A stretch of DNA of 64,000 nucleotides from a virus (IMGVR_UViG_3300031813_000016:2338-66337), one strand, 5' to 3'; positions 13,064 through 62,296 are shown, counted from the stretch's first letter. Notes: generated by a model not told the origin, from the sequence alone. Translations and numbers: made by a program.

Positions 13064-13093
13064 GGAGAGGGAATCTTCAATGGTTCCCTCTCC
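13064..13093 (+). promoter_or_regulatory. GC-rich intergenic hairpin without U-tract
   Basis: ggagagggaa / ttccctctcc perfect 10-bp stem between the vWA and PP2C genes. Confidence 0.55.
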
Positions 13094-13106
13094 AAAGGAT
13101 AAATTT

Positions 13107-13970: not shown

Positions 13971-13982
13971 AGGAGAATTAAA

Positions 13983-14169
13983 ATGGGATACAATTTAAAT
14001 TCAATGGATAAAGCAACATTAGTTGAAGTTGTAAATAATATGTATAAGAAATTAAAAGAAAAAAGTAAATACAAGTTTTAAATGTGAAGAATTAAGAAAA
14101 ATATGTATTGAATTAAAGCATAAACATTTTTTAGATACACCTTATTCAAGTTTTTATAAAACCTTATAA
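13983..14169 (+). pseudogene. Frameshifted paralogue of 14184..14372
   Basis: Strong RBS and ATG. One extra A in the A6 run at 14059-14064; after correction it reads ..KCEELRKICIELKHKHFLDTPYSSF, matching ..KRKDLERLIVKLKNTYFKDIPYTKL. Confidence 0.65.
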
Positions 14170-14183
14170 AAAGGAGAAATTAA

Positions 14184-14372
14184 ATGTCTGGAGGCTTTAA
14201 AGAAATTAATAAAGAAGCATTGATTGAGATAATTAATCATGTATATAGCGTATTAAAAACTGGAGAAAAAGTTTCATATAAATGGAAAAGAAAAGATTTA
14301 GAAAGACTGATTGTTAAATTAAAAAATACATATTTTAAAGATATTCCATACACTAAATTATTAGAATTATAA
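14184..14372 (+). CDS. Small hypothetical protein (tandem paralogue)
   Basis: 62 aa, AAGGAG RBS. Confidence 0.75.
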   Translation: MSGGFKEINKEALIEIINHVYSVLKTGEKVSYKWKRKDLERLIVKLKNTYFKDIPYTKLLEL

Positions 14373-14384
14373 AGGAGGCTAACA

Positions 14385-16094
14385 ATGCCTAAAGTGATTA
14401 TACAAGGTAAACCAAATGTAATTAATTTACATGATACAAATGACTTTAAAGCTTTAGGTGGAGAAGCCAAAATATATGAAAAAAATGGAATTATATATAA
14501 GATATATTTAGATCAATCTAAAATGATTCCAATGTCTAAAATACAAGAACTATCAGTTTTAGATCGTGAAAACATAGTAAAACCAAAAGATATTATTTTA
14601 AATGAAAAAAGTAGTGTAATTGGGTTTACAATGGATTATGTTAAAGGTTTGCCTATTGTAGCTTTATTTACTAATGATTTTAGAAATGATAACAATATTA
14701 CTCCAGAATCTACTTTAAAACTTGTTGAAAAAATACAAGAAGAAGTTGAATTTATACATAGTAAAAGATGTTTGGTTGTAGATTTAAATGAAATGAATAT
14801 ATTAGCAGATGAAAAGACTTATGAAAATCCATATTTTATAGATGTAAATTCATATCAAACTCCAAGTTTCAAAGCAACAGCAATAGCTCCTGGTATACGT
14901 GATTGGAAAACTAATACTTATAATACAAATACTGATTGGTTCTCATTTGCAATATTAGCATGTGAATTATTTATTGGCATTCATCCGTTTGAAGGAAGAC
15001 ATAATAAATATGATTCTACTCAATTTAAAGAAAGAGTTGTAGACTGTATTTCAATATTTAATAAAGATACAAGAGTTCCCAAAGCTACAAGAGATTTTAG
15101 TTTAATTCCAACTGAATATCAAAATTGGTTTATAAAACTATTTGAAAAAGGAGAAAGAATTCCTCCACCTACAATGGCTGGGTTAATGAATGTAACTCAA
15201 GTTAAAATACAAGTAATTCATTCTACTAATAATTTTATAATTCAATTTTTCAAAGAATATGATTCAGATATATATAAATATTTTACTTTTAATGGTAAAT
15301 CTGTCTCAACTCTGAAACATAAATTATATTTTGATAGATCTGAATATAACATTACTAGTCATAAAATTGATGTAATTTTTACACCAAAAATGTTAACTCC
15401 AATTCTATCAAAAATAGAAAATGGATATTTAGTTTTAAAAGATTTAACTACAAATAGTATTATTTCAACAAATACATTCTGTACCGAAAAATTTGTAATC
15501 AATAATGTTTTATTCTCAAGATTTGAAGGACAAGTTACTGAATGGAATATAGATCATTTTGGTGGAAATTTAATTTGTTCTGTTTCAACTATTTGGGGTA
15601 TAATGCCTAAATCTAGTCAGATTTTTGAAGGAACTATTTATCAAAATATTTTAGGAAATTCTTATTTCTTAATACCAGTTCCCATTCAAGGCAGTTCTAC
15701 ATCTTGTTATACTAAAGAAATAAAAGAATTAAATAATTACAAAATTTTAAATGCAAAACATGAAAATGGTTGTTTAATTGTAGTAGCAGATGATTTAAAA
15801 AATCAAAATCAATTTTATAAGAAATTAATTATAAGATTTGATAAGAACTATGATAACTATGATATCCGAGTAATTGATGTAAAAACTACTTTAATAAATT
15901 TTACAGTTCTTGATAATGGAGTTTGTGTAACAATACATGAGGATGACTCATTAGAAGTCTTCCATGTAAATATTGGATCTAAATTTACCAAAATTGAAGA
16001 TCCTGATATTAGCTCCAATATGATCTTGACAAAAAGTGGAGTAACTGTTATGTTTCATGTTCAAAATAAGTTGTATACTTTGAAAATGAAGTAG
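14385..16094 (+). CDS. Ser/Thr protein kinase (YegI-like) with C-terminal extension
   Basis: LGGEAKIY, YKIY, VVDLNEMNIL catalytic loop, IDVNSYQ, TDWFSFAIL..ELF.GIHPFEG. Confidence 0.85.
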   Translation: MPKVIIQGKPNVINLHDTNDFKALGGEAKIYEKNGIIYKIYLDQSKMIPMSKIQELSVLDRENIVKPKDIILNEKSSVIGFTMDYVKGLPIVALFTNDFRNDNNITPESTLKLVEKIQEEVEFIHSKRCLVVDLNEMNILADEKTYENPYFIDVNSYQTPSFKATAIAPGIRDWKTNTYNTNTDWFSFAILACELFIGIHPFEGRHNKYDSTQFKERVVDCISIFNKDTRVPKATRDFSLIPTEYQNWFIKLFEKGERIPPPTMAGLMNVTQVKIQVIHSTNNFIIQFFKEYDSDIYKYFTFNGKSVSTLKHKLYFDRSEYNITSHKIDVIFTPKMLTPILSKIENGYLVLKDLTTNSIISTNTFCTEKFVINNVLFSRFEGQVTEWNIDHFGGNLICSVSTIWGIMPKSSQIFEGTIYQNILGNSYFLIPVPIQGSSTSCYTKEIKELNNYKILNAKHENGCLIVVADDLKNQNQFYKKLIIRFDKNYDNYDIRVIDVKTTLINFTVLDNGVCVTIHEDDSLEVFHVNIGSKFTKIEDPDISSNMILTKSGVTVMFHVQNKLYTLKMK

Positions 16095-21004: not shown

Positions 21005-22909
21005 ATGGGGCTTAATCCAAACATATCTAAATTCGGAAAGTTGATTGGAATTGCAGCACTTGTTGGAGGTGTTGTTTTTTATGGAACAAGACCTGGTCAT
21101 TTCATGAGTATGGATTCAATAAAAGCAGTATTCCAGAAAAAAGTTGATCTTCCTAGTGTTGCTCCACTCAAAAATGTTACAAATGTTCCTCTCCTTCCTT
21201 TACCTTCAAAAAATGTTATTGGAACTGGTCCTAGCTACAGGGTTGAAGTTGCTCCTTGGAGTGCCCAAAATGGAGCATTCCTTGCTAATGGTGGACCTGT
21301 TACAACTGAGGGATCTATCCTTGCTGGTCTTGGTATTACCAATTTAAAATTCATTAGGCAGGATAGTTTTAAACAACAATCGGATGACCTTATTGCTTAT
21401 ATGAAAGAATGGAAATCAATGGGTGGTGGAAAAGCTAATCCCAATAAAGGTTGCCAATTTATATCTTTAATGGGTGATGGTTCTTCTTCATACCTAAGGG
21501 CAATCGTTGCTGAATTAACATCTGCTGGTTTTCATCCTCAAATAAAAGTTGCTCTTGGAAAGAGTGCAAATGAAGATGGATTCTGGGGTCCTAAAGAATG
21601 GAAAGATAAACCAAGTTCTATGAAAGGTGGAGTTGTTATTGGGGTGCTGTATGATGGGGATATGAACCTACCTTTGAAATATTGCCCGGATAATGATGTT
21701 CAAATGAATCCCAATATTAAGACATATGATCCTGATCGTATGAATATTATTCCTGCTCAAGATGATGATTTCCTAAAAGCAGTTGACCAATATAATGTTG
21801 GGGTTACAGAAGAACGTGAAATTTCACATAATGGAATTCTCACTGGAAAGAAAATTAAAATTACCACAGATAAATCAAAATCATCTACTACAAGTTTTAC
21901 TATAGCTTCAACTATTGGCGGTACACTTTATGTTGAAGCAGGTGTTGTTACATATACACCCGGAGACGTAAGAATTACAAAAGGAAAAGGTGGTCTTTTT
22001 CCAATTGTAACAACTTATGATTATTATTGGCAGATGCCTGATTTCCTTGTAACAACTAAAGAATGGGCAGATGCAAATCATAATGAAGTTAAGTCTATCA
22101 TCAAAGGTTTCTTACTTGGTGGTTCACAAGTCAAAGTTCATGATAAAGCTTTATTCAGAGCATGTGAAATTGCTTGTGATTTATATAAAGGAACTGGAGA
22201 AGAAGGAACTCCAAAATTCTGGTATACCAACTTTAAGAAACATGAAGTATCAAGTCCGGATGGTTCAGTTGATAAAGAAGGAAAACCTACAGGAAAAACT
22301 ATTCAAGTTAATGTAGGTGGGTCTATGAACTTCTCAATTGAGGATAACATTGTTGCATTTGGTCTTGAAAAAGGAGATGGTGGACCTGCTCAATCAACCT
22401 ATACAGTTTTTGCAGATAAAATGGTTGAATTATGGCCTGATAAGATGAAAGATTATCCTGCATTTCAAGATGTTTTTGATCCTTCATTCTTAAATGAAAT
22501 TACAAAAGAAACCACACTCAATCAAGAATTAACAATGAAACCTGATGTAGATGGTGCACCAATTCGTGAAACCATATCTACATCAAATAAGTCAATTCAA
22601 TTTATATCTGGAAGGTCTGAATTGACAGCAGAAGGTCGAAAGGAATGTAAAAAGCTTTTTAACGATGAGAATATTACCGGTCTTAAGCTTTTAATTACTG
22701 GGCATACTGACCGACATGGTTCTCATGAAACAAATATGAAACTTTCAAAAGATCGAGCAGAAACAGTTAAAAGGTTTTTGGCCAATCTTGGGTATAAAGA
22801 AGACTTAATTGATACCGATGCAAAAGGTGATACTGAGCTTCTTGACCCTGCAAATAATAGTACTGCTGATGCAAAGAATCGTCGAGTTGTGATCCAAATG
22901 GGTAGGTAG
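21005..22909 (+). CDS. ABC substrate-binding (NMT1/SsuA-like) + OmpA C-terminal domain fusion
   Basis: N-terminal anchor. SBP-like ..VTYTPGD..DFLVT.KEWADAN..VK.IIKG. OmpA motif IQFISGRSELT..LLITGHTDRHG....NMKLSKDRAETVK.FL...G...NRRVVI. Confidence 0.85.
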   Translation: MGLNPNISKFGKLIGIAALVGGVVFYGTRPGHFMSMDSIKAVFQKKVDLPSVAPLKNVTNVPLLPLPSKNVIGTGPSYRVEVAPWSAQNGAFLANGGPVTTEGSILAGLGITNLKFIRQDSFKQQSDDLIAYMKEWKSMGGGKANPNKGCQFISLMGDGSSSYLRAIVAELTSAGFHPQIKVALGKSANEDGFWGPKEWKDKPSSMKGGVVIGVLYDGDMNLPLKYCPDNDVQMNPNIKTYDPDRMNIIPAQDDDFLKAVDQYNVGVTEEREISHNGILTGKKIKITTDKSKSSTTSFTIASTIGGTLYVEAGVVTYTPGDVRITKGKGGLFPIVTTYDYYWQMPDFLVTTKEWADANHNEVKSIIKGFLLGGSQVKVHDKALFRACEIACDLYKGTGEEGTPKFWYTNFKKHEVSSPDGSVDKEGKPTGKTIQVNVGGSMNFSIEDNIVAFGLEKGDGGPAQSTYTVFADKMVELWPDKMKDYPAFQDVFDPSFLNEITKETTLNQELTMKPDVDGAPIRETISTSNKSIQFISGRSELTAEGRKECKKLFNDENITGLKLLITGHTDRHGSHETNMKLSKDRAETVKRFLANLGYKEDLIDTDAKGDTELLDPANNSTADAKNRRVVIQMGR

Positions 22910-22932
22910 TAAAATAACAAAAGGAGAATAAA

Positions 22933-23253
22933 ATGGGATTTCTTAAAGATGCAGCAGAAAAAGTTGAACAACTTGGTGGTAAAGTTGTAGAAGGAGCTCA
23001 AGCTCTTGGTGAAGCTGTGCAACATGGAGTAAATTCATTTAACGAAAAACTGCAAGAAAACCTGGGAGGGTCTATGGAAACCAACGAAGTTAAGGAAAGT
23101 GTAGCAAAATTCTGTTCACGTTGTGGCGGTGCTCTCAAAGATCGTCCGGAAGAAGTTGATGGGGATAAAGAATGCACAGTTTGCAGTCATATCTTCCATG
23201 AATGTGACTGTGGTTGCCACGGTCTTTGCGACAAGGGAATTAAACAAGCATAA
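22933..23253 (+). CDS. Hypothetical protein with C-terminal Cys/His zinc-ribbon cluster
   Basis: CSRCGG, CTVCSH, CDCGCHGLC. Confidence 0.65.
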   Translation: MGFLKDAAEKVEQLGGKVVEGAQALGEAVQHGVNSFNEKLQENLGGSMETNEVKESVAKFCSRCGGALKDRPEEVDGDKECTVCSHIFHECDCGCHGLCDKGIKQA

Positions 23254-23266
23254 TAAATAAACTGTC

Positions 23267-23298
23267 ATTGGGACTCCTGGGAAACTAGGAGTCCCAAT
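23267..23298 (+). promoter_or_regulatory. Intergenic GNRA-capped hairpin before the permease RBS
   Basis: attgggactcctgg-gaaa-ctaggagtcccaat, no U-tract, followed by GGAGG and a GTG start. Confidence 0.6.
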
Positions 23299-23308
23299 CG
23301 GAGGAATT

Positions 23309-24091
23309 GTGAAGTGGTTATTTATACCTAATACAAAGTTGAATCATAATCAATATATTTTAGTTAGAGTTTTCATTTACTCTATTATCCTTTTTATATG
23401 GTCTTTGAGCCATTCAACATTAATCCCTCCTATTCAAAAAATAATTTTTTCTTATCAATCTTTAGTAGTTCAAGATAAATTATTTCTTGAAATATTAACC
23501 AGCTCTATATTATTTGGAAAATGTCTTTTCTGGGTGATTTTAATTTCTTTTATATCTTCATATCTATCAGTAATTCCAATAATAAATCCTGTAGTACAAT
23601 TAGAAGCAAAGTTTAGAGCAATATCAATTGTAGGTATTCAATTGTTTTTTACCACAATAGCATCAGATGATTATCATTTAAAAATATGGATTATTGGTTT
23701 CTTTACAACACCATGGTTGATAACATCAATGCTTGATATAATTAAAAATATCCCACCCGAAGAATATGATCATGCAAGAACATTAAGATTTCCTGAATGG
23801 TATGTAACTTGGCATGTTGTAATTAGAGGTCAGTTTCATTTAGTTATGGATGCAATTATTCAAGTTTCATTAATGATTGTAGTATTCCTTCCTGTAGCTG
23901 AAAAAATTATTAAATCAGATGGAGGTATTGGATATCTTTTAACTAGTCTTGAAAGATTCCATGACAATACAAAGATCTATGCTATTGATATTTTATTAGT
24001 TATTTTAGTTTCATTATTAATAACTATTCTTAAATGGATTAGAGATTTGTTTTGCCCTTATGCTGAGAAAATTGAAGGAGTACAAAAATGA
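23309..24091 (+). CDS. ABC transporter permease (NitT/TauT, SsuC-like)
   Basis: Multiple TM helices; EAA-like IPPEEYDHARTL...W..V..HVVI; AEKI...DGGIGYL. Confidence 0.85.
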   Translation: MKWLFIPNTKLNHNQYILVRVFIYSIILFIWSLSHSTLIPPIQKIIFSYQSLVVQDKLFLEILTSSILFGKCLFWVILISFISSYLSVIPIINPVVQLEAKFRAISIVGIQLFFTTIASDDYHLKIWIIGFFTTPWLITSMLDIIKNIPPEEYDHARTLRFPEWYVTWHVVIRGQFHLVMDAIIQVSLMIVVFLPVAEKIIKSDGGIGYLLTSLERFHDNTKIYAIDILLVILVSLLITILKWIRDLFCPYAEKIEGVQK

Positions 24092-24876
24092 GTCAAACTC
24101 TTTTAAAAATAACTGACTTAAGACATAGTTTAGGTGGTAAAATAATATTAAAAAATTTCAATGGAAAAATAGAAACTGAAAAAATAGATGAAGGACATGG
24201 TGAAATTATAGCAATACTTGGGCCTTCTGGTGTAGGTAAAACTACATTATTTAAAATTCTTTCAGGTATTATATATCCAGATAAAGGAACTATTGAATTG
24301 TTGTCCAGAAAAGACAACATGAAATACATACATCCACGCCAAGGTGTTATGGGTGTTGTTGCTCAAAAATATCCTTTATTTAAACACTTAACAGTTTTAG
24401 ATAATTTAAAAGTTACAAAAAAATCAAAAGATGAATGTATTGAAATGTTGAAATCATTTGGTTTAGAAGAACATGTTGATAAATATCCATGTGAATTGTC
24501 TGGAGGCCAACAACAAAGAATTGCAATAGCTCAACAGATATTATGTAGCGATCAATTTTTATTATTAGATGAACCATTTTCAGGTGAAGATTTACTTTCA
24601 AAATGTGAAATTTGTAAAATGCTAAAACGTACTGCAGATTTAAATGAAACAAATACCATCATAGTTATAACACATGGTATAGATGAAGCAATAAAAGTTG
24701 CAAATAAAATTTGGCTAATTGGTAGAGATAGAGATGAGAAAAAAAATATTATACCAGGAGCATATATAAAAGAAGTAGTTGATATTGATGCAAAAGAAAT
24801 GTCACGAAAATGTTGTAGCACCCCACAATTAAGAGAAGTGTCAGATTACATAACTAATAAATTTAAGGATCTATAA
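24088..24876 (+). CDS. ABC transporter ATP-binding protein (TauB/SsuB-like)
   Basis: GPSGVGKT, VAQKYPLF, LSGGQQQR, LLLDEPFS, ITHG. Confidence 0.95.
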   Translation: MSQTLLKITDLRHSLGGKIILKNFNGKIETEKIDEGHGEIIAILGPSGVGKTTLFKILSGIIYPDKGTIELLSRKDNMKYIHPRQGVMGVVAQKYPLFKHLTVLDNLKVTKKSKDECIEMLKSFGLEEHVDKYPCELSGGQQQRIAIAQQILCSDQFLLLDEPFSGEDLLSKCEICKMLKRTADLNETNTIIVITHGIDEAIKVANKIWLIGRDRDEKKNIIPGAYIKEVVDIDAKEMSRKCCSTPQLREVSDYITNKFKDL

Positions 24877-31135: not shown

Positions 31136-32011
31136 GTGGGTGGGAATGGTGAGTTTTTTGGGTTTGAAGTTATGACTGGATGTAGATCATTTTTAAGATA
31201 TCATGATGGTGATAAAGAAAGATATCTTGAGCTTGATATGATAATACATTCAAAGAAAATCGCTATAGAATATTGTGGATTATATTATCATGAAGAGAAA
31301 ATATTAGATGATACAAGACCAATTCCTGGTAAAGATTTTCACTTAAAAAAATTACAATTAACTAACAATAAAGGATATAATTTAATTCAAATATTTGAAG
31401 ATGAATGGATATTAAAAGAAGACATTGTAAAACATAGATTATTACAGATATTAAATAAAAATGATAATATTAAAATTGGTGCTAGAAAATGTATTATAAA
31501 AGAAATAGATTCTAAAACTAAAAATGAATTTTTAGAGAAATATCACATTCAAGGTAAAGATTCAGCTATTATTAAATTAGGAGCTTTTTATGGTGAAACT
31601 TTAGTTTCAGTAATGACATTTTCAAAAGGATCTATTTCAAAGGGGTCTTATCATAAGGAAGGAGAATGGGAGTTAAATAGATTCTGTTCAAATTATGATT
31701 ATCATGTAATAGGAATAGCTAGTAAATTACTAAATTATTTTAAAATAAATTATGAATGGATCAAAATCTTTAGTTATGCAGATAGAAGATGGTCTATAGG
31801 TGATTTATATTATCAATTAGGTTTTAATTTAGAAAAAATTACTGATCAAAATTATTGGTATTCAAAAGGAATTAAAAGAATACATAGATTTAATCTTAGA
31901 AAAACAGAAGATGATCCAAAAGATAAAACAGAAGAGATGTTGAGGTTAGAACAAGGGTATAATAGAATATGGGATTGTGGAAATTTAAAATTTGTTTTAG
32001 AAAATAATTAA
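31136..32011 (+). CDS. Hef-like homing endonuclease (PD-(D/E)xK + GNAT-like), lacking the usual N-terminal DNA-binding repeats
   Basis: LELDM..HSKKIAIEYCGLYYH, IFEDEW, IGARKC, FLEKYHIQG, WELNRFC, GIASKLL, SYADRRWS.G.LY..LGF, RIWDCG. Confidence 0.75.
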   Translation: MGGNGEFFGFEVMTGCRSFLRYHDGDKERYLELDMIIHSKKIAIEYCGLYYHEEKILDDTRPIPGKDFHLKKLQLTNNKGYNLIQIFEDEWILKEDIVKHRLLQILNKNDNIKIGARKCIIKEIDSKTKNEFLEKYHIQGKDSAIIKLGAFYGETLVSVMTFSKGSISKGSYHKEGEWELNRFCSNYDYHVIGIASKLLNYFKINYEWIKIFSYADRRWSIGDLYYQLGFNLEKITDQNYWYSKGIKRIHRFNLRKTEDDPKDKTEEMLRLEQGYNRIWDCGNLKFVLENN

Positions 32012-50838: not shown

Positions 50839-52323
50839 CTATAAACTACTACCAAGACCATCAAATCCTAATAAATTTTCACTAGTAACATCTTGCTTTT
50901 TATCATTAGAAACTTTACCTACACTTAAGAATCTAAATGTTGTAAAGTCAACTTTAAAATCAACATTAACATTTGACTTTCCATTTCTATTTTTTGCAAC
51001 TTTTCCATGAACTATATCCTGGGTTATAGAATCTCTTATCATTAAAAATACAAAGTCAGCATGTTCAACTTTCTTTATAGATTCTGACATTTGATCTAAA
51101 TTCAAATCTTTTGATTCTTGTACTCTATATGCAGATCTACCTAACTGTGTAACTGTTACAATTGGTATATTATAAAATACCGCTAAACTTTTCAACGAAA
51201 CTGTTATTTGCCCTAACTCTAATCTCAATGCATCATATTTTAAATCACTAGATAACAAATCAAGATAATCTAAATATAAACCTCTTATTGAGTCTTTACC
51301 ATAATCTGAAATTATATCATCAAGACACATTGTTAAGTCTAGTGGACTTATTGTCATGGGCCTAAAATATTTAATAATTATTGTAGAATTAGTTTTATTC
51401 AATTCAGCCGCTATAGATTCAGCAATATTGGCTCCACTTATTACATCATTTAAAGCTTGATTTAAACTATACCCTTTTATTTTTTGATATAACCTTAATA
51501 ATGTTTCATCAATTGTATTTTCTAATGTTATATAGATATAAACATTTTTTGTATTTTCTTTTCCATTTGATAAAACTGGTAAATTATTTAAACTCATTGC
51601 TGAATTTAAAATAAAGTTAGCTAATAATGTAGATTTACCAGAACCAGAACCTCCACCCAATATATATAATCTTGAAGGTTCAAACCCTCCATTTAAAATT
51701 TCATTATCAAATATACTAAAACCAGTTGAAGTTGTATTGCCTTTTGAATATTTACTTTTGATTAGTTCCATTACAGAACTACCATTATCTTTACATATAT
51801 CTAATGAACTTGCAGCTTCAATTGCAGTATTCCTATTATTGTCCATTAAATTTGAATATAAGTTTTTAACTACATCTTCATAATCTAATACTACATCATC
51901 TAATGATTCAAATGTACCATCTTTAACTGTTTCTAAAAATTTAGTTAATTTATCATAATTTGAAAATAATGAATTTAATTTTTTTCTTAATCTAATTTGC
52001 TTTACATTATCAAATAAAACTATATCATTTATTTCTTCTGTTATTTTTTGATTTAAAAAATCAGTGTATTGTTTATACTTTTCAGTTAAACATAAACTGT
52101 CCAATATATTCTCATTTGTCTTATCTCCTAATTTCATGTCACATACTTTTAGAAGACATTCAACTTTATTCTGCATTGTGACTGGAATAGTTATTTTTTC
52201 TTTTTTAACATAGAAATTAACTGTTTCTAATATATCTCTAAATAAAGCCTTATCTTTCTTAACACTAGAACTTTTACATAATACAACTGAGAAACAACTG
52301 TTTAGGAAAGAATCTGTTATCAT
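50839..52323 (-). CDS. DnaB-like replicative helicase (T4 gp41-like)
   Basis: STGFS.FD...GGFE..RLYILGGGSGSGKST, YITLE, LYLDYLDL, IVTVTQLGR, MSESIKKVEHADF, KNRNG. Confidence 0.9.
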   Translation of the reverse strand: MITDSFLNSCFSVVLCKSSSVKKDKALFRDILETVNFYVKKEKITIPVTMQNKVECLLKVCDMKLGDKTNENILDSLCLTEKYKQYTDFLNQKITEEINDIVLFDNVKQIRLRKKLNSLFSNYDKLTKFLETVKDGTFESLDDVVLDYEDVVKNLYSNLMDNNRNTAIEAASSLDICKDNGSSVMELIKSKYSKGNTTSTGFSIFDNEILNGGFEPSRLYILGGGSGSGKSTLLANFILNSAMSLNNLPVLSNGKENTKNVYIYITLENTIDETLLRLYQKIKGYSLNQALNDVISGANIAESIAAELNKTNSTIIIKYFRPMTISPLDLTMCLDDIISDYGKDSIRGLYLDYLDLLSSDLKYDALRLELGQITVSLKSLAVFYNIPIVTVTQLGRSAYRVQESKDLNLDQMSESIKKVEHADFVFLMIRDSITQDIVHGKVAKNRNGKSNVNVDFKVDFTTFRFLSVGKVSNDKKQDVTSENLLGFDGLGSSL

Positions 52324-52686: not shown

Positions 52687-53115
52687 TTATTCTCCTTCTT
52701 TAATATTTGTAGATCCATAACCATTAATTCCTCTTTCTGAGTCTGATAATTCTTCAACTACTTCAAATTCTATTTTACGATATGGTATAATAATCATTTG
52801 ACCAATTCTATCACCTACATTATATTTTTCTCCAAAATCTAAATATTTGAAGCGAAAGGTTATTGGACCACGATATCCGCTATCAACCACCCCAACAGAG
52901 TTTGCTAAAATTAATCCCTTATCAGATATAGAACTTCTTGGAAATAATAACCCAACATACCCATACGGGACTTCTATAGCTATACCGGTTTCATATTCAA
53001 TATAATTTAATTTTTCATTAACTTTGATACAAGTAAAATCTAAACCAGCATCGCCAGGTTTTGCATATTTTGGCGTAATTGCATCTTGGTGTAATTTCTT
53101 TATTTTAACCTTCAT
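52687..53115 (-). CDS. dut: Trimeric dUTPase
   Basis: AGLDF, TGIA, LFPRSS, GVVDSGYRG, RIGQMII, RG.NGYGST. Confidence 0.95.
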   Translation of the reverse strand: MKVKIKKLHQDAITPKYAKPGDAGLDFTCIKVNEKLNYIEYETGIAIEVPYGYVGLLFPRSSISDKGLILANSVGVVDSGYRGPITFRFKYLDFGEKYNVGDRIGQMIIIPYRKIEFEVVEELSDSERGINGYGSTNIKEGE

Positions 53116-53258: not shown

Positions 53259-53642
53259 TTATTCATCCTTATAATTTAACTTTTCTAAATTAATATTATC
53301 TTGAACTTCTCTATTTTCTTTCTCTCTAAGAATTAATTCTAATTCAGCTAATGCATTCCAAGCCTCATGTGCTTTATGTAAAAATCCACTATCTCTATCA
53401 TTTTCTTCAATTGCACCATACAGAATATGTCTGTTCTTCGCATCATTATATCTTTCAATACCATTTGGAACTTCTAACCATCCATGAGCTGTATATTTAT
53501 TAGCTCCAAAAGTACATATCTTTGAAACTTCTAAAAGAGCTCTAGCAAAATCATTGAATAAAAGTCCAACTCTTAACTTACCTGCATCTACTTTAGCTCC
53601 TGTTTCATGCTGATCTTTTCCATGTGGGTCTTTTTCTTCCAT
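53259..53642 (-). CDS. dATP/dGTP diphosphohydrolase (DUF5664 family)
   Basis: GAKVDAGKLRVGLL..ALLEVSKI.TFGANKY...W...RY..A..RH...DSG.LH.AH.AWN.LA.LEL. Confidence 0.85.
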   Translation of the reverse strand: MEEKDPHGKDQHETGAKVDAGKLRVGLLFNDFARALLEVSKICTFGANKYTAHGWLEVPNGIERYNDAKNRHILYGAIEENDRDSGFLHKAHEAWNALAELELILREKENREVQDNINLEKLNYKDE

Positions 53643-53646
53643 CTAT

Positions 53647-53949
53647 TTATTCTCCTCTTTTCTTTTGAAATAACATTACTATAACTTCTCTTGTTAATTC
53701 CATTGGATATTCTTTAGTCAATTCTTTAAATTCATTTTGAATATTTATTATTTCAATTAATTTTTTTAATTCCTTAAAATTAGTACATGGTTTATTATCA
53801 TTATTAACATATAATGATTCTGTTATTAAATCTATTCCATATTTAGTAACTAAATCTTGTAATTTACATTTTATATCATCTCTAGCCATAACTTCATTAA
53901 ATTTAATCATATCTTTATGAGCTAGTTGTTTCCTTTCATATTCAGTCAT
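53647..53949 (-). CDS. Hypothetical protein
   Basis: 100 aa. Confidence 0.65.
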   Translation of the reverse strand: MTEYERKQLAHKDMIKFNEVMARDDIKCKLQDLVTKYGIDLITESLYVNNDNKPCTNFKELKKLIEIINIQNEFKELTKEYPMELTREVIVMLFQKKRGE

Positions 53950-54217
53950 TTATATTTTTCTCCTTAAATATTTCTTCTAATACTTCTTGTTTCATTTTAC
54001 TAGGATAACTACTTGTCATATCAAACCAATCATTATGTATTTTATATAAAATTTCACCTTCATGTTCATCATATTCATAACAACCATAATAATTTGATAA
54101 TACTAAATATATTTTTTCTTCACTACAACTTGATAATAGTAATAATATCTCATAACAATTTCTAATTTCTTTTTTACCTCTTTCAATGTTATCTTTGACC
54201 CATTGTTCTTCTTCCAT
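53942..54217 (-). CDS. Hypothetical protein
   Basis: 91 aa. Confidence 0.6.
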   Translation of the reverse strand: MEEEQWVKDNIERGKKEIRNCYEILLLLSSCSEEKIYLVLSNYYGCYEYDEHEGEILYKIHNDWFDMTSSYPSKMKQEVLEEIFKEKNIND

Positions 54218-54246
54218 AATTTAAATAACCCTTAAACATTCTGTCC

Positions 54247-55731
54247 TTAAACTAATTTAATTTCTAAAAATTTTAAAACTAAATTAGAGTGCATTACAGA
54301 GAATAATTGCTCTTTACTTGGATGACTAGAACTTAAATTATTCAAGTACATAGCCTTAACCAATTGTTTTGCTTCTAAAAAACTTTGTTTTCCATAATCT
54401 TTTGATTCTTCTAAGAAGAGGCAAAATTCAACTTTAAGCCAATTTAATTGTCTAAAAGAAATTCTTTTAACATTAGAAATTGCTCTACAATGTTCTAAGA
54501 TTCTCTTATTAAACTTTTCTATTAAATTAGTTTTATCTTTCAATCTAGAATAAATTGTTTTTCTTAAAATATTTAAAGCACCATTTACATCTGAATGTAT
54601 AACAACATCTTTTACTTTAAATAATCCCCTTGTGATTCTTTTTCCTTCATAAATTTTATGTTTATTTATTTCTTCTAATATAATTGATGAACACTTACTA
54701 GTATACCACTCAGATATTTCATAAACGGATATTGAATTTTTATTCCCTTGAAATTTTAAATAATTTTTAAAATAACTAAATGGAATCATATTCCAAAGTT
54801 TTCTAATTCCTTTACTTAATTGATTTTTTGTCATTATTGATTTTACATTTCCAATACTCAATCTATTTATTCCTAAATTTTTTAAATATTGTATAATTCT
54901 TATGGCTATTAATTTTAGTTGAGATTTAAAATTATTTTTAACTTTTTGTCTATAAACTTTATATTTTTCTTCACTTTTATATTTACTAGATTTTTTAAAC
55001 AATTTTAAATTTTCATAAACTAATTCCTTCAAATCAAATAATATTGGTTTAAAGTTTATATCATCTATTAAACAAATATTATCTAACCCAATATCAATAG
55101 AAGCAAATTTTAAATCTTCGTTTTTTATAACTTTTTTATATTTAATTTCTTTTTGTTTCATAAAGTAAATAAACCATTTACCTTGTAAATATCTAAATTC
55201 TAAATAAAATTTATCACTAGTTTCTCTTATATATTTTAACATTTTTTGATTTAATTGGAATTCTATTCCTCTTGGAAATTTTCTATCTTTAATTTTTTGA
55301 ATATTACAAATATATAATTTTCCATCATCTTTGATTATAAATCCCTGGCTATTAGGATCTACAACCGTAAAACCTCTGAATTCAATTTCGTGGTGATATT
55401 GTTTATGCGGACTTAAAATTATACTTTTAGCATTTTGAATAGCTTGTGGTAATATATTCATAGAAATTCTAGTTGGTAATTTATCATAATGATATCTAAA
55501 AATTCTTGTTGGAATTTCACATGGTATCTTTTTTCCAATAAAATTACTAATATTATCAAAGTATTTTTCTAATGTTTTCTTATTTCCACCATAATTTCTA
55601 TATCCAAAATAAACTAACCATTTTGTTAATTGATTAAAAGCTCTTTGATAATGGTGTGAGTAGTACGTAAGATATGCATCTTGATAAGAATTAGTCCTTA
55701 ATTTTTGAATAGAAACAGAATTAACTTTCAT
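54247..55731 (-). mobile_element. tnpB: TnpB-family RNA-guided endonuclease (IS200/IS605/IS607 OrfB) with rearranged RuvC-II; no transposase nearby
   Basis: RuvC-I SIDIG, LSIGN at the canonical Glu site, EWYTSKC, RITRGLF, HSDVNGALNILRK. ATG 55731 overlaps the RHH stop. Confidence 0.85.
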
Positions 55732-55855
55732 ATTTTTTAATAAGATCCTTAATTGCCTCTTCAATTAAACATTTAATTTTCATACCTTTTTTATTAGCTA
55801 TTTCTTTTAATTTTTCATGAAGATTTTCATCTAAATAACTTGTAAAAAGTTTCAT
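55721..55855 (-). CDS. Ribbon-helix-helix protein (44 aa), translationally coupled to tnpB
   Basis: MKLFTSYLDENLHEKLKEIANKKGMKIKCLIEEAIKDLIKKYES; AAGGAG RBS; not in the ORF track. Confidence 0.8.
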   Translation of the reverse strand: MKLFTSYLDENLHEKLKEIANKKGMKIKCLIEEAIKDLIKKYES

Positions 55856-55914
55856 AATTCTCCTTTAAATATAAAATATTTTATTTATATATTTGTTCTA
55901 TATTAAAGTACATA

Positions 55915-57288
55915 TTAGATCTTTAATGTACGATGTTGATCCATCATCTCAGTAAATTCATCTTTAGCTAAGAATTTTTCTACTAAATATTTACAAAAAT
56001 CTTCGTCTAAATTAGTTAGCATATCTAATGATCTTAATACACTATTTGACTTGCTTGTTTGTTTTCTTGTGATCTTTCCACTATTTAAACATTGGGTCAC
56101 AAATTGAATCTTGTTATGTAATAATTCGTTATCACTAGATTCATAAATATCATAAATTTCTTGAGCTTTAACTTTTAGTAATTTTTCAACTTGATTATAA
56201 ATATCTAAAATATATAACAAAGAATAAACTCTTATTTCAGAAAAAAATGTTCCTGTTTTTTTATCATATATTTCATTCATTTCTAATTCTCTGAAGTTAT
56301 GATTTTTAGCCATAATATTTATTTTTTCTTTATAAATATCAATAACTTTTTTCTCGCTATGATGTCTTAAATTTAAAAAATCACTTCTTAAGTTTATTTT
56401 TTTTATTTTTTCGTCATCCAACACATGTAACATTCTTCCAACCATTAATCCTTTAAACATGCCGGAAGAATCAAATGTTATATTCAATTCAATACCATGT
56501 ACTTTTAATACATGTAATTTGAATAACTCATAAAATAAAATATCTCTAAATGTTGCTCCACCTAATATATGGAAATGTAAAAAATTTCTACCAAACTTTT
56601 TAGCTTGATTTATTAATGGAATTAATGGTAAACAATATATAATACAAGGTATAGCAGAGTCGGATGACATATTAGCAACAATACCACCAGTTGCATGATA
56701 TTGAAATTGATTAAACATATCATCTTCATTTAAAATCTTTGTATAAATTTCCCATAATTTAGGAGTTCTAAAATGATGAATGTATATTATTTTATCTCTC
56801 ACATTTTTTGGTAAATTCATTGCTTCAGTATATGATGATTTATTCAAATTAAATACATCATCAAAGTCTCTAAATACTGTACAATTTGGACCTGGCGGTA
56901 AATCTAAAATAAAAGCTCTGTCATAACAATCATTATGGTCAACTAAAAAATGATAATAAATATCTTTCAATATTTCCATTTCTCTTCTATTTAATAAACC
57001 AATAGAAACTTGGAATGCACCACTATCAACATAAAATAAACTTTTATTGAAGAAATCAAATCTTCTACATTTGTTAAATACTTCTGCTTCTTTTTCACTA
57101 TAATTGGTATATGATTTTCGACCAGGAAAGTTTTGTCCAAAAGAATGAAGAAATTTATTAGAACTATTTAAGAAAAAATTATCAATAATAGGTCTATCAA
57201 AATGATTCTTATTTTCATCACTTCTAATAAATTTATCAAGTATACTTCCTAAGGTCTCAAATCCTGCACATATATAACTAGACGTCAT
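55915..57288 (-). CDS. tRNA-guanine transglycosylase-fold protein, DpdA-like
   Basis: FYVDSGAFQ, FILDLP, HATGG, HFHILG, TFDSS in TGT motif order. Confidence 0.65.
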   Translation of the reverse strand: MTSSYICAGFETLGSILDKFIRSDENKNHFDRPIIDNFFLNSSNKFLHSFGQNFPGRKSYTNYSEKEAEVFNKCRRFDFFNKSLFYVDSGAFQVSIGLLNRREMEILKDIYYHFLVDHNDCYDRAFILDLPPGPNCTVFRDFDDVFNLNKSSYTEAMNLPKNVRDKIIYIHHFRTPKLWEIYTKILNEDDMFNQFQYHATGGIVANMSSDSAIPCIIYCLPLIPLINQAKKFGRNFLHFHILGGATFRDILFYELFKLHVLKVHGIELNITFDSSGMFKGLMVGRMLHVLDDEKIKKINLRSDFLNLRHHSEKKVIDIYKEKINIMAKNHNFRELEMNEIYDKKTGTFFSEIRVYSLLYILDIYNQVEKLLKVKAQEIYDIYESSDNELLHNKIQFVTQCLNSGKITRKQTSKSNSVLRSLDMLTNLDEDFCKYLVEKFLAKDEFTEMMDQHRTLKI

Positions 57289-57297
57289 CTTATACTC

Positions 57298-57492
57298 CTA
57301 TCCTATTTTTAATTCACATTCCAACAAACCATCAATAAAAAATAATGGTATATTATATGTATTTATATTACATTTACAAATACTATAACTAAGTAGTTCA
57401 TCTCCTATTATCTGATTCTTACAACATATCATATTAAAATCACACATGATATTAGCTATTCGCTTACTTTCTGTAAATTCAATTGAAGTCAT
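57298..57492 (-). CDS. Small Cys-rich hypothetical protein
   Basis: 64 aa. Confidence 0.55.
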   Translation of the reverse strand: MTSIEFTESKRIANIMCDFNMICCKNQIIGDELLSYSICKCNINTYNIPLFFIDGLLECELKIG

Positions 57493-57564
57493 AAATTCAC
57501 CTTTAAATCACTCTATGAACTTTTTAAATCCATAGAGTGATATTTTAAAAATAATTTAAACTAT

Positions 57565-57840
57565 TTATTCTGGAGCTAAAACACCATAAACTTCTCCAGC
57601 ATGCATACATCTATATTCTTCATTATCAAGAAGAATAACTTGCCCTGCTCTACTATGAAATGTAATTGTATCTCCTTCTTTAATACACTCAATTTCAGGC
57701 GCTACACTAGAGACTATTCCATACCCTTGAGGAAGAGAAGTAATTGAGGTTGGCAAAACAATTCCACCTTTAGTTGTATTCTCAATTTCTTTCAACACTT
57801 TAACAATAACCATATCAAATACAGCATTAATCTTTCTCAT
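57565..57840 (-). CDS. groES: Co-chaperonin GroES
   Basis: INAVFDMVIVK...TTKGGIVLP...G.V.SV...IKEGD.I.F...G..I..D.EEY......V.GV; start moved to 57840. Confidence 0.9.
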   Translation of the reverse strand: MRKINAVFDMVIVKVLKEIENTTKGGIVLPTSITSLPQGYGIVSSVAPEIECIKEGDTITFHSRAGQVILLDNEEYRCMHAGEVYGVLAPE

Positions 57841-58099
57841 TGTGCTTTCTCTCCCTTGTAGACTGTAATTTCTCTTTTTTAATTTCTTCAAGTTTACATC
57901 TTTGAATTGCTTCTTTTCTTTTATTCCTTCTTCTAACACTTGGTTTAATATAAAATTCTCTAGCTTTCAATTCTTTCAAAATTCCACTATTATTTACTTT
58001 CTTTCTAAACCTTCTTATTAGTGATTCACCTGATTCGCCTTCTTTTGGGTATACTTCAATTTCAATAGAATCTCTTTGCTGTTGCCTTTTAAACGCCAT
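57827..58099 (-). CDS. rpsU: 30S ribosomal protein bS21
   Basis: EGESGESLIRRFRKKVNNSGILKELKAREFYIKPSVRRR.K; start moved to 58099 (GGAGGA RBS). Confidence 0.9.
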   Translation of the reverse strand: MAFKRQQQRDSIEIEVYPKEGESGESLIRRFRKKVNNSGILKELKAREFYIKPSVRRRNKRKEAIQRCKLEEIKKEKLQSTRERKHNEKD

Positions 58100-58112
58100 C
58101 ACTTCCTCCAAT

Positions 58113-58772
58113 TCAAACAAAGTTATAAATTATGTGGTCTCTACTTGAAAAATTGAATTTATATTTTTCTGCCATATCAAATACAAATCCTGAATTTTCT
58201 AATAGTTTTTCTCTTGTTGTTCCTTCTGGCATTAAAAATATCTTTTCATTCATAAAATTAAGATTAGATAAAAATTCTAAAAAATCTATAATTTTTGAAT
58301 CATTTTCACAAACTAATTTAATATAAACATTTCCTTTATCAAAAACTTTAGTAATCAAATTTTTATAAAATACAACATCTTCATCTGTAAATAATTTTGG
58401 AGATAGTATATATTTAACATATACTTCTTTCTTTACTTTGCTTATTAATTCTTCTAATCCAGTTCCATTAGTTTCGACATTTGCAAAATTAAAATCTAGT
58501 TTGTTTAATAATGTTGCAGTTTGATTTAAATTTAAAGACCATGTTGGTTCTCCACCTGTTATCATCAATGCCACTTTTTGTTCATCAATAATTAATTGTA
58601 AATCATGTAAAGAATAATCACTTTCCATTGCATTTCTCATACGGACTTGTGTGTCGCACCAGGAACAATTTCTATCACATCTTTTAAATCTTAACATTAA
58701 CATTCTTCGTCCAGAATCTGGGCCTTCTCCTTGCCAGGTTATACATGACTCTATTAACTTAACACTATTCAT
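58113..58772 (-). CDS. queE: 7-carboxy-7-deazaguanine synthase QueE-like radical SAM protein
   Basis: TWQGEG...G...LRF..CDRNCSWCDT, MITGGEP, NVETNG, SPK, LMPEG. Confidence 0.85.
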   Translation of the reverse strand: MNSVKLIESCITWQGEGPDSGRRMLMLRFKRCDRNCSWCDTQVRMRNAMESDYSLHDLQLIIDEQKVALMITGGEPTWSLNLNQTATLLNKLDFNFANVETNGTGLEELISKVKKEVYVKYILSPKLFTDEDVVFYKNLITKVFDKGNVYIKLVCENDSKIIDFLEFLSNLNFMNEKIFLMPEGTTREKLLENSGFVFDMAEKYKFNFSSRDHIIYNFV

Positions 58773-58826
58773 TTCATTTATCACCCCTTTTTTTATTATT
58801 TTGTTCCTTAAAAGTTAATAAGATTC

Positions 58827-59080: not shown

Positions 59081-62000
59081 CTAAAAAGTTAATACTTGGG
59101 TATCTTTACCAATAATAGGTTCTAATAGTAATTCATACCGATCTTTCCACGCAAACTCTAACATTGCCTTAACATTAACACTATAATATTTCGGTAAACT
59201 CAATTCTTCATCTGGTAGAGAAATCACCTCCAATTTTGTCCCTTTAGAAAGGAATTCATTATTATACTTTTCTAAAACTTCCTTTGGTGCTATGTCTTGT
59301 TTAATACCATTAATCTTGAAAAGGTATCCTTTACTTCCATGAGCAAATATATTATATTCTAGATTATTCCAATTTATCATTGAATGAACATTTTGTGATA
59401 TTACTTTGTAATCATCTACATCTTTAGTAAATGATGCTGGTTTTGCAACTGACTTATCTCCATTTTGAATTCTAATAATAAATTCTTTTTCTCTATTCTC
59501 TATAAATTGTCTAACTCTAGATGGTGAAAAATTCTCACTCTTTAAAATTAATTCAATTAATTCAGTTAAACATTCTTTAGTATATCTTGAAAAGTCAGAT
59601 CTCTTTACATCTAATCCCATACTTTTTATTGTATCCATTTGTACACCTTCGTTTGATATAATATGAAGGGCATAATGTTTCTTAGATACAAATAAACCAC
59701 GTTGTATAATTAATTCATTCTTTAAAAATAATTTATTATTTTCAGGTTTAACATTATGAATTAATGTTAGTTTCTCAATAATATCTTTATTTAAGAAATT
59801 TTGTAATAATACACAATATTCATTAACTTGTTTAACTTTATCTTCTTGACTCATTTTTTTATTAATAATTTTTCCATATGTAACAAACAAACTGTCAGTA
59901 TCGCCTGTTATAATATATTCTGTATTTCTGGATAAATTCCCATACATTTCTTGTTTAGTTATTAATTCAGGTAAAATATGGTTTTTAGTTTTCCATGAAT
60001 CAACCATATTATTTGCTGCCATAATTGAAAATTTAAGAGCTTCCTGCCCAGTTAATGTAATTGATTCAGCTAAGTCAACATTGAAAAACCTAAATGCTTT
60101 ATTACCCTGAACTCCATATATCGCATTTGCGAGTACTTTATATACCAATTGACGTACGTTATATAGTGATACACTTTCATCGTCTTTGACCTTCTCAGCC
60201 TCGAACATCTTATTCTTATATACCTTCCTAGACTTTAAAAGGTACTCTTCAATTTCATTATAAAAAGATTTTTTGTAATCATGTTGATAATAAAAACAAC
60301 CATTAATTGTCATAATTAAATCATCTTTTTCTTGTAATTTTTTAACATCTTGTTTAGTAAGTCTTTTTTCAATAGCTGTAAAATCCGGATCTATAATAAT
60401 ATCAACTTCATCTGGTAAATTATTAAAGTCATATAAATAATCATAACCGTGTGTTTTATCTTTAAATTTAAAAACAAAACTATCAGGACCAATATTCATA
60501 GTCATCATTATACTTGGGTATAGTGATGTAAAGTCAAAGTCAACAATCCATTCATGTAACCCAGTAATTGTTTCTTTAACAAAAGCACCAGCAAATTTTT
60601 GTTCTACTCCATGTATATCTGCATTTCTTGAAACTAAACCTTTTCTCTTTAGATATGAAACAATAATTGAATCAACTTTTCCCATTTCATTTGCTGCTGA
60701 ATTAAATGTTCCATTTGTAATTTCTCTCATTTCATTCATGAGAAAAATATGTTTTAATTTCTTATCCAAATCAACAAGAAGTGATACGTCTCTCACGTTA
60801 TATCGTATTGACTGATTTACATTTTCTTTAAACAATTTTCCAAAATTAGATCCACTATCTAATTTATCTTGTTTTAATTCAAATAACCCTACAGTCCCTA
60901 ATCTATTATTCTCTGGTTTTTTCTGAGAATAATTTTTATATAGATCTAACATATCTAAACATATAAATCCAGATATATCACAAAATCTTCTATCTGCATC
61001 TACATATATTTCTCCATATTTAGAAAATGAAGCTGGGATTATTCCTAACTTAGCAGCTCTATTTATAATGTATGGGAAGTCAAATCCAATGCTATTCCAG
61101 CCCGACAGTATGTCTGGATCTAATTTTAATAAATCATCTCTAAATCTTGTTATTAATTCTTTTTCTGATTTACATAATATTGCACTTTCTGTAACATTTT
61201 CAGCATTTGGGTCTTTTAACAAAATTTTATTATCAATCATATATGTAACATATTTACCATTTAACCAATATGTTATCATTGCTAATATATCTTTAACATC
61301 AACTGCATTTGAATATGATTTAGATTCACAAAATGTTTCAATATCTAGATGCATAATATTTAATGGTACGTTAGCCTCACCCTTATTAAGAAAATAATAA
61401 TCATGAGCATGTTTAACTGGTAATTTTATATCTCCATCATATGTTATTGAGGGATCTAATATTGCTTTTTCTTTGTATTTAACCATTACTTGCTTAATTT
61501 CATCAAATTTTAAAACTTTTTTATTTGGAATTCCTTCTTTTGGTTGATAGCAATAATAATCATCATTCTCTTCATGATAAATTTTCTTATTGTTTTTATC
61601 TCTAAAAATATATAAAACTTTATTAGCTTTATTCAACATTTGAATATCAACTAATTTATATTCATCTGTATAAAATTTATCGGGTATTTTATAATAATGT
61701 ATTCCTTCATTGCCTAAAATACTTTGATTAATTTTTTCTTCTCCTTTAATAGTCGACCCTAAAATAAACTCAGCTGCTTTTTTAATATCTTCTTCAAATT
61801 TTTCTTCTAATGTTTTTTGCTTATTAATAAACGATGGATTCAAAGTTAATAGAACATCGTAATTTTCCCATTTAAAAAAGTTACCTCTAATATTAACTAT
61901 ATTTGAATTTTTAGGAAGGACTTGAAATGTATTAGCTGGAATATCTCCCATTAATACAATTAGTTTAGGTTTACATGTTTTTATAAAATTAAAACAATTT

Positions 62001-62296
62001 TCTTTACAATTCTCAATTACATTTAATTCAGGTATTTCAGTTTGGCATAATATATTATTAGTCAATAAATATTTCATATCATTTATTTTATATTTTTCAA
62101 AATACTTTCTGAATAAAATATTAGATTTTCCAGATAGTGGTTTTTCTTTTTTAATTTCGTCTTTTGACGGAAACTCTGATATAAAGATAATTTCAACATC
62201 TTCTAAATCTTTACAATTAGTTTCTAATATACAGGAGGGTTCATTCAGGAGGGAACAAGACATACAATCTGCAAATGATTTTTTAATACTGAACAT
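59081..62296 (-). CDS. Family B DNA polymerase with N-terminal UDG family-4-like domain
   Basis: Exonuclease LDIET, GWNS..FD.PY, RYN..DV; polymerase DFDFTSLYPS, KVLANAIYG, TGDTDS, KKHY. N-terminus C..C.L, SEFPS, TN...C, C..FI...KPKLIVLMG, RG, TLNPS. Confidence 0.9.
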   Translation of the reverse strand: MFSIKKSFADCMSCSLLNEPSCILETNCKDLEDVEIIFISEFPSKDEIKKEKPLSGKSNILFRKYFEKYKINDMKYLLTNNILCQTEIPELNVIENCKENCFNFIKTCKPKLIVLMGDIPANTFQVLPKNSNIVNIRGNFFKWENYDVLLTLNPSFINKQKTLEEKFEEDIKKAAEFILGSTIKGEEKINQSILGNEGIHYYKIPDKFYTDEYKLVDIQMLNKANKVLYIFRDKNNKKIYHEENDDYYCYQPKEGIPNKKVLKFDEIKQVMVKYKEKAILDPSITYDGDIKLPVKHAHDYYFLNKGEANVPLNIMHLDIETFCESKSYSNAVDVKDILAMITYWLNGKYVTYMIDNKILLKDPNAENVTESAILCKSEKELITRFRDDLLKLDPDILSGWNSIGFDFPYIINRAAKLGIIPASFSKYGEIYVDADRRFCDISGFICLDMLDLYKNYSQKKPENNRLGTVGLFELKQDKLDSGSNFGKLFKENVNQSIRYNVRDVSLLVDLDKKLKHIFLMNEMREITNGTFNSAANEMGKVDSIIVSYLKRKGLVSRNADIHGVEQKFAGAFVKETITGLHEWIVDFDFTSLYPSIMMTMNIGPDSFVFKFKDKTHGYDYLYDFNNLPDEVDIIIDPDFTAIEKRLTKQDVKKLQEKDDLIMTINGCFYYQHDYKKSFYNEIEEYLLKSRKVYKNKMFEAEKVKDDESVSLYNVRQLVYKVLANAIYGVQGNKAFRFFNVDLAESITLTGQEALKFSIMAANNMVDSWKTKNHILPELITKQEMYGNLSRNTEYIITGDTDSLFVTYGKIINKKMSQEDKVKQVNEYCVLLQNFLNKDIIEKLTLIHNVKPENNKLFLKNELIIQRGLFVSKKHYALHIISNEGVQMDTIKSMGLDVKRSDFSRYTKECLTELIELILKSENFSPSRVRQFIENREKEFIIRIQNGDKSVAKPASFTKDVDDYKVISQNVHSMINWNNLEYNIFAHGSKGYLFKINGIKQDIAPKEVLEKYNNEFLSKGTKLEVISLPDEELSLPKYYSVNVKAMLEFAWKDRYELLLEPIIGKDTQVLTF

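Follow-up and report, generated by a model that had tools for sequence, protein, structure and literature searches.

Phage 7-deazaguanine marks in DNA defeat restriction enzymes and some CRISPR nucleases, and surveys of such modified genomes rely on five DpdA subfamilies. A literature search found bacterial DpdA (bDpdA) and DpdA1-4 named, with no mention of a DpdA5 or of the family described here. The founding DpdA2 is protein YP_008125322 (Hutinet 2019, PMC6884629), and the DpdA2 enzymes of phages nt-1 and VH7D put preQ0 or preQ1 into DNA in E. coli (Cui 2023, PMC10516641). The active site of bacterial DpdA consists of D95 as the general acid/base, F99 for stacking, D130 and H181 for base recognition, G206-G207 and the nucleophile D256; the enzyme lacks the N-terminal lid of the tRNA-guanine transglycosylases (TGTs) (PMC10164549) and shares with them a structural zinc site, CxCxxC...H. 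The subject of this work is a 457-residue protein encoded on the minus strand at positions 55915-57288 of a 64,000-nucleotide stretch of viral DNA (IMGVR_UViG_3300031813_000016:2338-66337), referred to as the window. An AlphaFold2 model and a family profile point to a TGT-fold enzyme that is probably a zinc-less DNA guanine transglycosylase and a candidate for a new DpdA subfamily. Judged by profile comparison, the protein belongs to a sister family of phage DpdA2 that is large and has gone unannotated. An earlier note on this DNA had read positions 53259-58772 as a candidate 7-deazaguanine DNA modification locus made up of this DpdA-like protein, QueE and a DUF5664 protein.

The five ordered TGT motifs listed in that note are all present in the open reading frame (ORF): DSGAFQ at residues 88-93, LDLP at 128-131, TGGIVA at 200-205, HILGG at 240-244 and FDSS at 272-275. 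Conservation was measured in an alignment of 55 family members with identity down to 19-25%. D88, Q93, D129, H240, L242, G243 and D273 are invariant, and S89, G91, F126, N149, H172, G201 and G202 are conserved in at least 90% of the members. Invariance of the catalytic residues across proteins this divergent indicates that the motifs are not a chance occurrence. The order and spacing of the conserved residues match the bacterial DpdA set, and in the model they occupy the C-terminal ends of successive β-strands, one on each. D88, D129 and D273 align with the DpdA2 invariants D76, D112 and D266, and the GG and LG motifs align with E. coli TGT. By motif order, the three aspartates would be the equivalents of D95, D130 and D256 in bacterial DpdA. 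H172, in the sequence HHFR, lies opposite the Q/G-N of the DpdA2 consensus in the profile alignment, and loss of the conserved active-site His is a DpdA2 trait (PMC6884629). By analogy with TGT and bacterial DpdA, a guanine of the phage DNA would be flipped into the barrel, D273 would attack C1' to give an intermediate in which enzyme and DNA are covalently joined, with D88 as the general acid/base, and the guanine would give way to a free 7-deazaguanine base bound through D129, H172 and the G201-G202 loop.

The CxCxxC zinc motif occurs in none of 225 full-length family members and in none of 118 DpdA2 relatives. The same test applied to E. coli TGT as a positive control located CDCYTC at residue 302. 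The C-terminal half of the family has no conserved Cys or His in the 55-member alignment. The note had described the C-terminal region as a long extension, a view that does not hold. About 185 residues follow the nucleophilic Asp; nt-1 DpdA2 has 198 residues there and bacterial DpdA has 157. The length is thus normal for DpdA-type enzymes, and part of the region superposes on the TGT C-terminal subdomain. The unusual feature of the C-terminal region is the missing zinc site.

The AlphaFold2 model was built on 24 homologues and has a pLDDT of 87.9 and a pTM of 0.88. A Foldseek search of the PDB gave arcTGT and bacterial TGT as the best matches. VIA-align applied to the Foldseek list superposed 300-328 residues on eukaryotic, bacterial and archaeal TGTs with Z = 17.4-18.9 and a root-mean-square deviation (rmsd) of 3.7-4.2, the best match being QTRT1/TGT (Z = 18.9, rmsd 3.7 over 314 residues). 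A second VIA-align search, made independently of Foldseek against 48,161 PDB cluster representatives, returned five members of the TGT superfamily at the top: arcTGT (17.9), bacterial TGT (16.7), QTRT2 (15.4), the DNA preQ0 insertase DpdA 7ui4 (14.5; rmsd 4.6 over 298 residues) and Cap10 (13.6). Unrelated TIM barrels reached Z ≤12.5, and the top five stood 1-5 Z units higher. The model, the structure searches and the 55-member alignment bear out the earlier claim of a TGT fold with an intact catalytic set, and the protein is predicted to be a TGT-superfamily (β/α)8 barrel with TGT-type topology that includes the C-terminal subdomain. Residue 1 of the model aligns with TGT residue 37-40 but with DpdA residue 2, and the first barrel strand is the start of the model. 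The N-terminal lid of the tRNA enzymes would therefore be absent, as it is in DpdA.

The presence of Cap10 (Z = 13.6) and QTRT2 (Z = 15.4) within the top five structural matches is what speaks for a target other than nucleic acid, as in CBASS Cap10, which puts deazaguanine onto protein, or for a silent partner role like that of QTRT2. Either role is hardly credible, since the full catalytic Asp set is invariant, which argues against a silent partner, and no Cap9-like or CD-NTase partner occurs among the neighboring genes examined. The constant partners are instead QueE, PolB and DnaB, and Cap10 scores below the true TGTs. A Cap10-like protein modifier was rejected on genomic context.

The closest relationship of the family was found by profile-profile comparison. 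The hhalign alignment of the 55-member profile with a 36-member DpdA2 profile had a probability of 97.2% with E = 3.6e-11 over 254 columns. It runs from residue 3, where both families have an N-terminal Y-V-x-(A/S)-G, through the nucleophile motif. The corresponding comparison with a TGT profile, which was built from 80 gammaproteobacterial TGTs and has low diversity, gave 44% over 49 columns. The same kinship appears in structure. Foldseek against a viral structure library gave the 464-residue DpdA2 of nt-1 as the second-best match (E = 2.6e-8), and this protein was located in the genome of Vibrio phage nt-1 as YP_008125322. Actinophage DpdA1 (E ~1e-4) and phiST DpdA3 (E = 2e-2) were weaker viral structural matches than DpdA2. 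Single-sequence hhalign comparisons with E. coli TGT, Saguaro DpdA1, two HCTV-16 proteins and three Campylobacter phage proteins were too weak to rank, and the one with Saguaro DpdA1 gave no signal.

Membership in DpdA2 at the reach of hidden Markov model (HMM) or PSI-BLAST searches was not found, and the link is made by profile-profile comparison only. At E ≤10 the family HMM had no match in the genome of nt-1, and the last 170 residues have no detectable homology to the DpdA2 C-terminus. The HMM check against DpdA, DpdA2 and TGT suggested in the note thus produced no direct match, and the answer came from the profile-profile scores of 97.2% for DpdA2 versus 44% for TGT. The description of the protein as DpdA-like stands insofar as the nearest known family is the DNA-acting DpdA2 and a tie to QueE is seen in gene order and in fusions; it fails insofar as the protein is not a recognized DpdA.

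Searches with the single sequence and with the profile gave no meaningful match in Pfam, PHROGs, PADLOC, NCBIfam or PDB sequences. The sole library hit, to an acyl carrier protein at E = 0.01, was judged to be chance. Pfam TGT (PF01702) did not match the 457-residue protein at E ≤0.01 or the 55 members at E ≤1. The bacterial DpdA models also failed, with no match to PF23859 or, at E ≤10, to the PADLOC or NCBIfam DpdA models. The Pfam scan of the protein and its 55 relatives returned no family, which covers DUF6610 (PF20314, DpdA4) provided that PF20314 was in the Pfam copy used, and no common Pfam family matched the 55 diverse relatives even at E ≤1. An H2TH match in a single member was not reproduced. 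The failure of every existing TGT and DpdA profile sets the 457-residue protein in a separate family. A tblastn search of 50,697 GenBank phage records found no homologue. The family comprises at least 559 clusters at 90% identity by a word-indexed search, nearly all of 455-465 residues and all labelled hypothetical, and 236 clusters at 50% identity by a full HMMER scan, and the contigs that carry its members are up to 308 kb long. Single distant members and a fusion protein were not found in the IMG/VR or JGI metagenome scan.

The ORF at 58113-58784 (minus strand) is assigned to the QueE family of radical SAM enzymes (7-carboxy-7-deazaguanine synthase) by its sequence. It has the QGEG and CxxxCxWCDT motifs, matches phrog_2076 (E = 1.5e-29), and has B. 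subtilis and E. coli QueE (5tgs and 6nhl) as its only PDB sequence matches. QueE and DUF5664 both lie where the note had placed them, and its end coordinate of 58772 is an internal ATG that is the likely QueE start. The window QueE is matched at 25-30% identity by 152 GenBank phages with known deazaguanine clusters, and its NCBIfam QueE equivalog scores are ≤54 bits, far under the cut-offs of 200-300. This enzyme, encoded 0.8 kb upstream of the TGT-like gene, would convert CPH4 to the 7-deazapurine ring (7-carboxy-7-deazaguanine, CDG). As the note had stated, FolE, QueD and QueC are absent from the window, and they are also absent from the whole 66-kb record, which holds ~21% of the genome. 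Pathway genes were counted in 17 long related records, and QueE was found in 16, QueD in 11, QueC in 10 and FolE in 1. QueF and a canonical TGT or DpdA were found in none of the 17. The pathway genes are scattered over the relatives' genomes. Scattered QueD and QueC together with a rare FolE fit a preQ0 route dependent on host FolE, which the QueD and QueC encoded elsewhere in most relatives' genomes would complete. This distribution suggests preQ0 as the likely base, or CDG in the lineages without QueC.

The position of the gene is conserved. An IMG/VR pattern scan yielded 37 related loci at 36-57% identity, many of them on 180-312 kb contigs. The order PolB, QueE, TGT-like gene, DnaB is kept in 34/37 loci; PolB lies upstream of QueE in 34/37 and DnaB follows the TGT-like gene in 35/37. 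Ribosomal protein S21 (27/37) and GroES (31/37) are encoded between QueE and the TGT-like gene, and S21 is probably outside the modification chemistry. Four metagenomic proteins join the TGT-like domain to a second one. P0392 (706 residues, JGI) and P0261 (528 residues, ENA, cut by the contig end) each have a complete QueE joined directly to residue 1 of the TGT-like domain. In P0189 (969 residues, one ENA record) a complete DnaB comes after an entire TGT-like domain, and P0174 (one record) is a fusion to a GP88 domain (PF17338). S21 and GroES normally stand between the two genes that the QueE fusion joins. The QueE- and DnaB-fusion members are 24-27% identical to the window protein, which indicates that the QueE and helicase links reach well beyond the close clade. 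The fixed position between PolB and DnaB suggests that the gene is expressed alongside the replisome, which would put the mark on newly made phage DNA and shield it from restriction.

A DNA target is favored on the basis of the DpdA2 kinship, the lost lid, the position among replisome genes, the fusion to DnaB, the lack of QueF and the precedent of the phage preQ0 pathways; the DNA substrate, the base inserted and the protective role are all proposed. Several points weigh against this reading. The 457-residue protein is missed by every curated TGT and DpdA model. Unfiltered HMM cross-scores between the family and DpdA2 are 20-25 bits, compared with >50 to 540 bits within each family. The structure search found no recognizable DNA-binding fold in the C-terminal 160 residues folded alone; the 162-residue construct had a pLDDT of 80.8 and a best Z of 5.7, and at that score no fold was assigned. 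The DnaB fusion could be read-through because the two genes are normally adjacent and the fusion is a single record. In the predicted structure, the tRNA-acting TGTs score slightly above bacterial DpdA (Z = 17.9-18.9 versus 14.5). The sole complete relative, G001 (312 kb with terminal repeats), encodes QueE and the TGT-like enzyme, and no QueC, QueD or FolE was found in it by Pfam or by tblastn with the relatives' proteins. Two tRNAs on which a TGT could act, tRNA-His(GTG) and tRNA-Asp(GTC), are also encoded in G001.

The structural ranking and the two G001 tRNAs are the arguments for a tRNA-guanine transglycosylase that puts a deazaguanine into GUN-anticodon tRNAs of the phage or its host, or at another position, and tunes translation with S21 and GroES. 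The S21 gene between QueE and the TGT-like gene is in keeping with this role. It is nevertheless unlikely. The similarity to the TGT profile is marginal next to that to DpdA2, the TGT lid and zinc site are both absent, and the QueF needed for preQ1 and queuosine is encoded in 0/17 records. The gene keeps its place between PolB and DnaB, and in one record it is fused to the latter. The eight-member G001 tRNA cluster (L150:7718-11252; Ser-TGA, His-GTG, Lys-TTT, Asp-GTC, Leu-CAA, Trp-CCA, Ile-TAT and Glu-TTC) is ~120 kb away. The phage-encoded preQ0 pathways studied to date all serve DNA (PMC6884629, PMC10516641), which counts further against a tRNA target.

The gene set of G001 indicates that its pathway is either host-dependent or different. 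A weak QueC match in G001 proved to be NAD synthase, and this gene adjoins an HNH/NUMOD homing endonuclease (region L137). Together with the QueE fusion, the G001 gene set leaves room for direct use of CDG by the TGT-like enzyme. The enzyme would then take CDG, bypass preQ0 and insert 7-carboxy-7-deazaguanine or a derivative formed on the DNA, and it might move along with the replisome as it does so. The arguments for this scheme are that QueE and the TGT-like gene form an invariant unit, are sometimes one polypeptide and are the only pathway genes in G001; the idea of travel with the replisome comes from the hint of the DnaB fusion. The QueD and QueC genes of most relatives fit the preQ0 route, and direct use of CDG is considered possible but doubtful. 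If true, a direct, replication-coupled CDG pathway could explain the very high replacement levels in some phages.

The DUF5664 protein of the window (127 residues, 53259-53642, minus strand) stands alone and matches PF18909 at 81 bits against a cut-off of 27, over 96/99 model positions. A stand-alone homologue from Arthrobacter phage Wayne converts dATP, dUTP and dGTP to monophosphates (PMC12884076), and the window protein is by analogy a probable dATP/dGTP/dUTP pyrophosphohydrolase. The note was right that this is a dNTP pyrophosphohydrolase family, and its inclusion of the gene in the system was not sustained, for DUF5664 is an accessory gene that is loosely linked and no conserved part of the module. 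It occurs in 0/37 neighborhoods and in 5/17 long records. In G005 (C1:139004-139857) DUF5664 follows QueC by 30 bases on the same strand, and in G004, G006 and G008 it lies 2-9 kb from QueC. The records are related, and this proximity hints at a functional tie without proving one.

These placements, and the DUF5664 and dUTPase genes adjoining the module in the window, are compatible with an exchange made before replication on free dGMP or dGTP, in which DUF5664 and dUTPase would clear competing dNTPs and PolB would incorporate the modified nucleotide. In many relatives, the space upstream of the TGT-like gene is taken up by nucleotide-metabolism genes (for ThyA-like, kinase-like, HD and PurM-like proteins) and by one for thioredoxin, and all of these except the thioredoxin count in favor of such an exchange. 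One of them is a divergent thymidylate-synthase-like protein of ~270 residues (PF00303, C-terminal half only, E = 1e-10) encoded between GroES and the TGT-like gene in 19/37 relatives (L003:8130-8948, L004:7109-7948 and 17 more loci), with no homologue in the window; it could be a pyrimidine-modifying enzyme. A nucleotide-level exchange is nonetheless very unlikely. No TGT-superfamily enzyme in the literature and PDB entries compared acts on free nucleotides, DUF5664 is absent from 12/17 long records, G001 included, as well as from all 37 neighborhoods, and the field currently regards every 7-deazaguanine mark in DNA as made post-replicatively (PMC10516641).

The window comprises bases 2338-66337 of a 66,337-bp IMG/VR record of an uncultured virus with ~28% GC. 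The CheckV completeness of ~21% implies a genome of ~300 kb. Every gene from 62296 down to 50839 is on the minus strand, in the order PolB, an 81-residue ORF, QueE, S21, GroES, a 64-residue ORF, the TGT-like gene, a TnpB-like gene, two small ORFs, DUF5664, dUTPase, a 103-residue ORF and DnaB. The span given in the note also holds S21, GroES, the TnpB-like insertion and three small ORFs, which the note did not list. The upstream edge of the conserved block is the family B DNA polymerase (59081-62296; phrog_262, E = 1e-118), which is matched over residues 219-979; its first ~218 residues (61640-62296, minus strand) lie outside the polymerase profile match. The downstream edge is the DnaB-like replicative helicase (50839-52323; phrog_19, E = 6e-46). 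Ribosomal protein S21 is encoded at 57827-58120 (PF01165, E = 1e-17) and the GroES-like co-chaperonin at 57565-57939 (PF00166, E = 1e-12). The Cpn10 domain spans GroES residues 36-120, which makes the ATG near 57840 the probable true start. The 64-residue Cys-rich ORF directly upstream of the TGT-like gene (57298-57492, from the ORF list) has no PHROG match and no counterpart among the 37 related loci.

The slot between the TGT-like gene and DnaB is variable. In the window it holds TnpB, DUF5664 and dUTPase (52687-53115; PF00692, E = 2.7e-19), which are found in this neighborhood in 0/37 related loci. The TnpB-like gene (IS200/605 OrfB or Cas12f-like TNB; 54247-55764) matches PF07282 (E = 6e-7) and, weakly, PF01385; as an insertion specific to the window and absent from 37/37 related loci, it was rejected as a component of the system. 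A short ORF with a ribbon-helix-helix look precedes it from ~55854, within the interval 54247-55899 that holds both. A scan of the AT-rich DNA for promoters and terminators gave the number expected from shuffled sequence. Elsewhere in the window, a 291-residue protein (31136-32011, plus strand) has a sub-threshold match to Mom (PF25680, E = 1.4e-5, 25.3 bits versus a cut-off of 27.1) and may be a second DNA-modification gene of the same phage. The plus strand also encodes a PP2C phosphatase with a Ser/Thr kinase (13080-16094) and an OmpA-domain protein with an ABC permease and ATPase (21005-24876).

A widespread clade of ~200-310-kb uncultured phages carries the family as a constant member of its replication module. 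The family escapes every current profile, and surveys of modified genomes consequently miss this lineage. If its function is confirmed, the family would raise the number of DpdA subfamilies to six, the fusions to QueE and to DnaB would be testable leads on the base inserted and on the coupling of modification to replication, and phages of the clade would likely be resistant to standard restriction-based and some sequencing-based handling.

Among the known systems, the tRNA TGTs (bacterial TGT, arcTGT and QTRT1) are the best structural matches (Z = 16.7-18.9, 305-328 residues); their GG and (L/M)G motifs align with those of the family, and the catalytic Asp residues are kept by motif order. They differ in having the N-terminal lid and the zinc site, whereas the present family has a replication context and shares 49 profile columns with them. 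DpdA1, DpdA3 and DpdA4 of phages and archaeal viruses are alike in superfamily and in their presumed role beside Que genes; the family is set apart from DpdA1 and DpdA3 by the much weaker Foldseek matches and from DpdA4 by the Pfam scan. Bacterial DpdA (S. Montevideo, 7UI4, PF23859) has in common with the family the lid-less TIM barrel, the order of active-site residues and a long region after the nucleophile. Unlike the family, it has a CXCX2CX22H zinc site, its PF23859 model does not reach the phage proteins, and it belongs to a Dpd restriction-modification island rather than a phage replication module; its dpdB and dpdC partners were not seen here, where no search was aimed at them. DpdA2 of nt-1 and VH7D is alike in its length of ~460 residues, in its DSGG(F/L)Q, (L/F)D..P, H.LG and YDS(S/T) motifs, in having no CxCxxC, in being missed by Pfam TGT and in its occurrence in large myovirus-type phages with Que genes. 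One difference lies in the setting: DpdA2 is encoded in a FolE-QueD-QueC cluster, whereas the gene of the present family sits in the replisome block.

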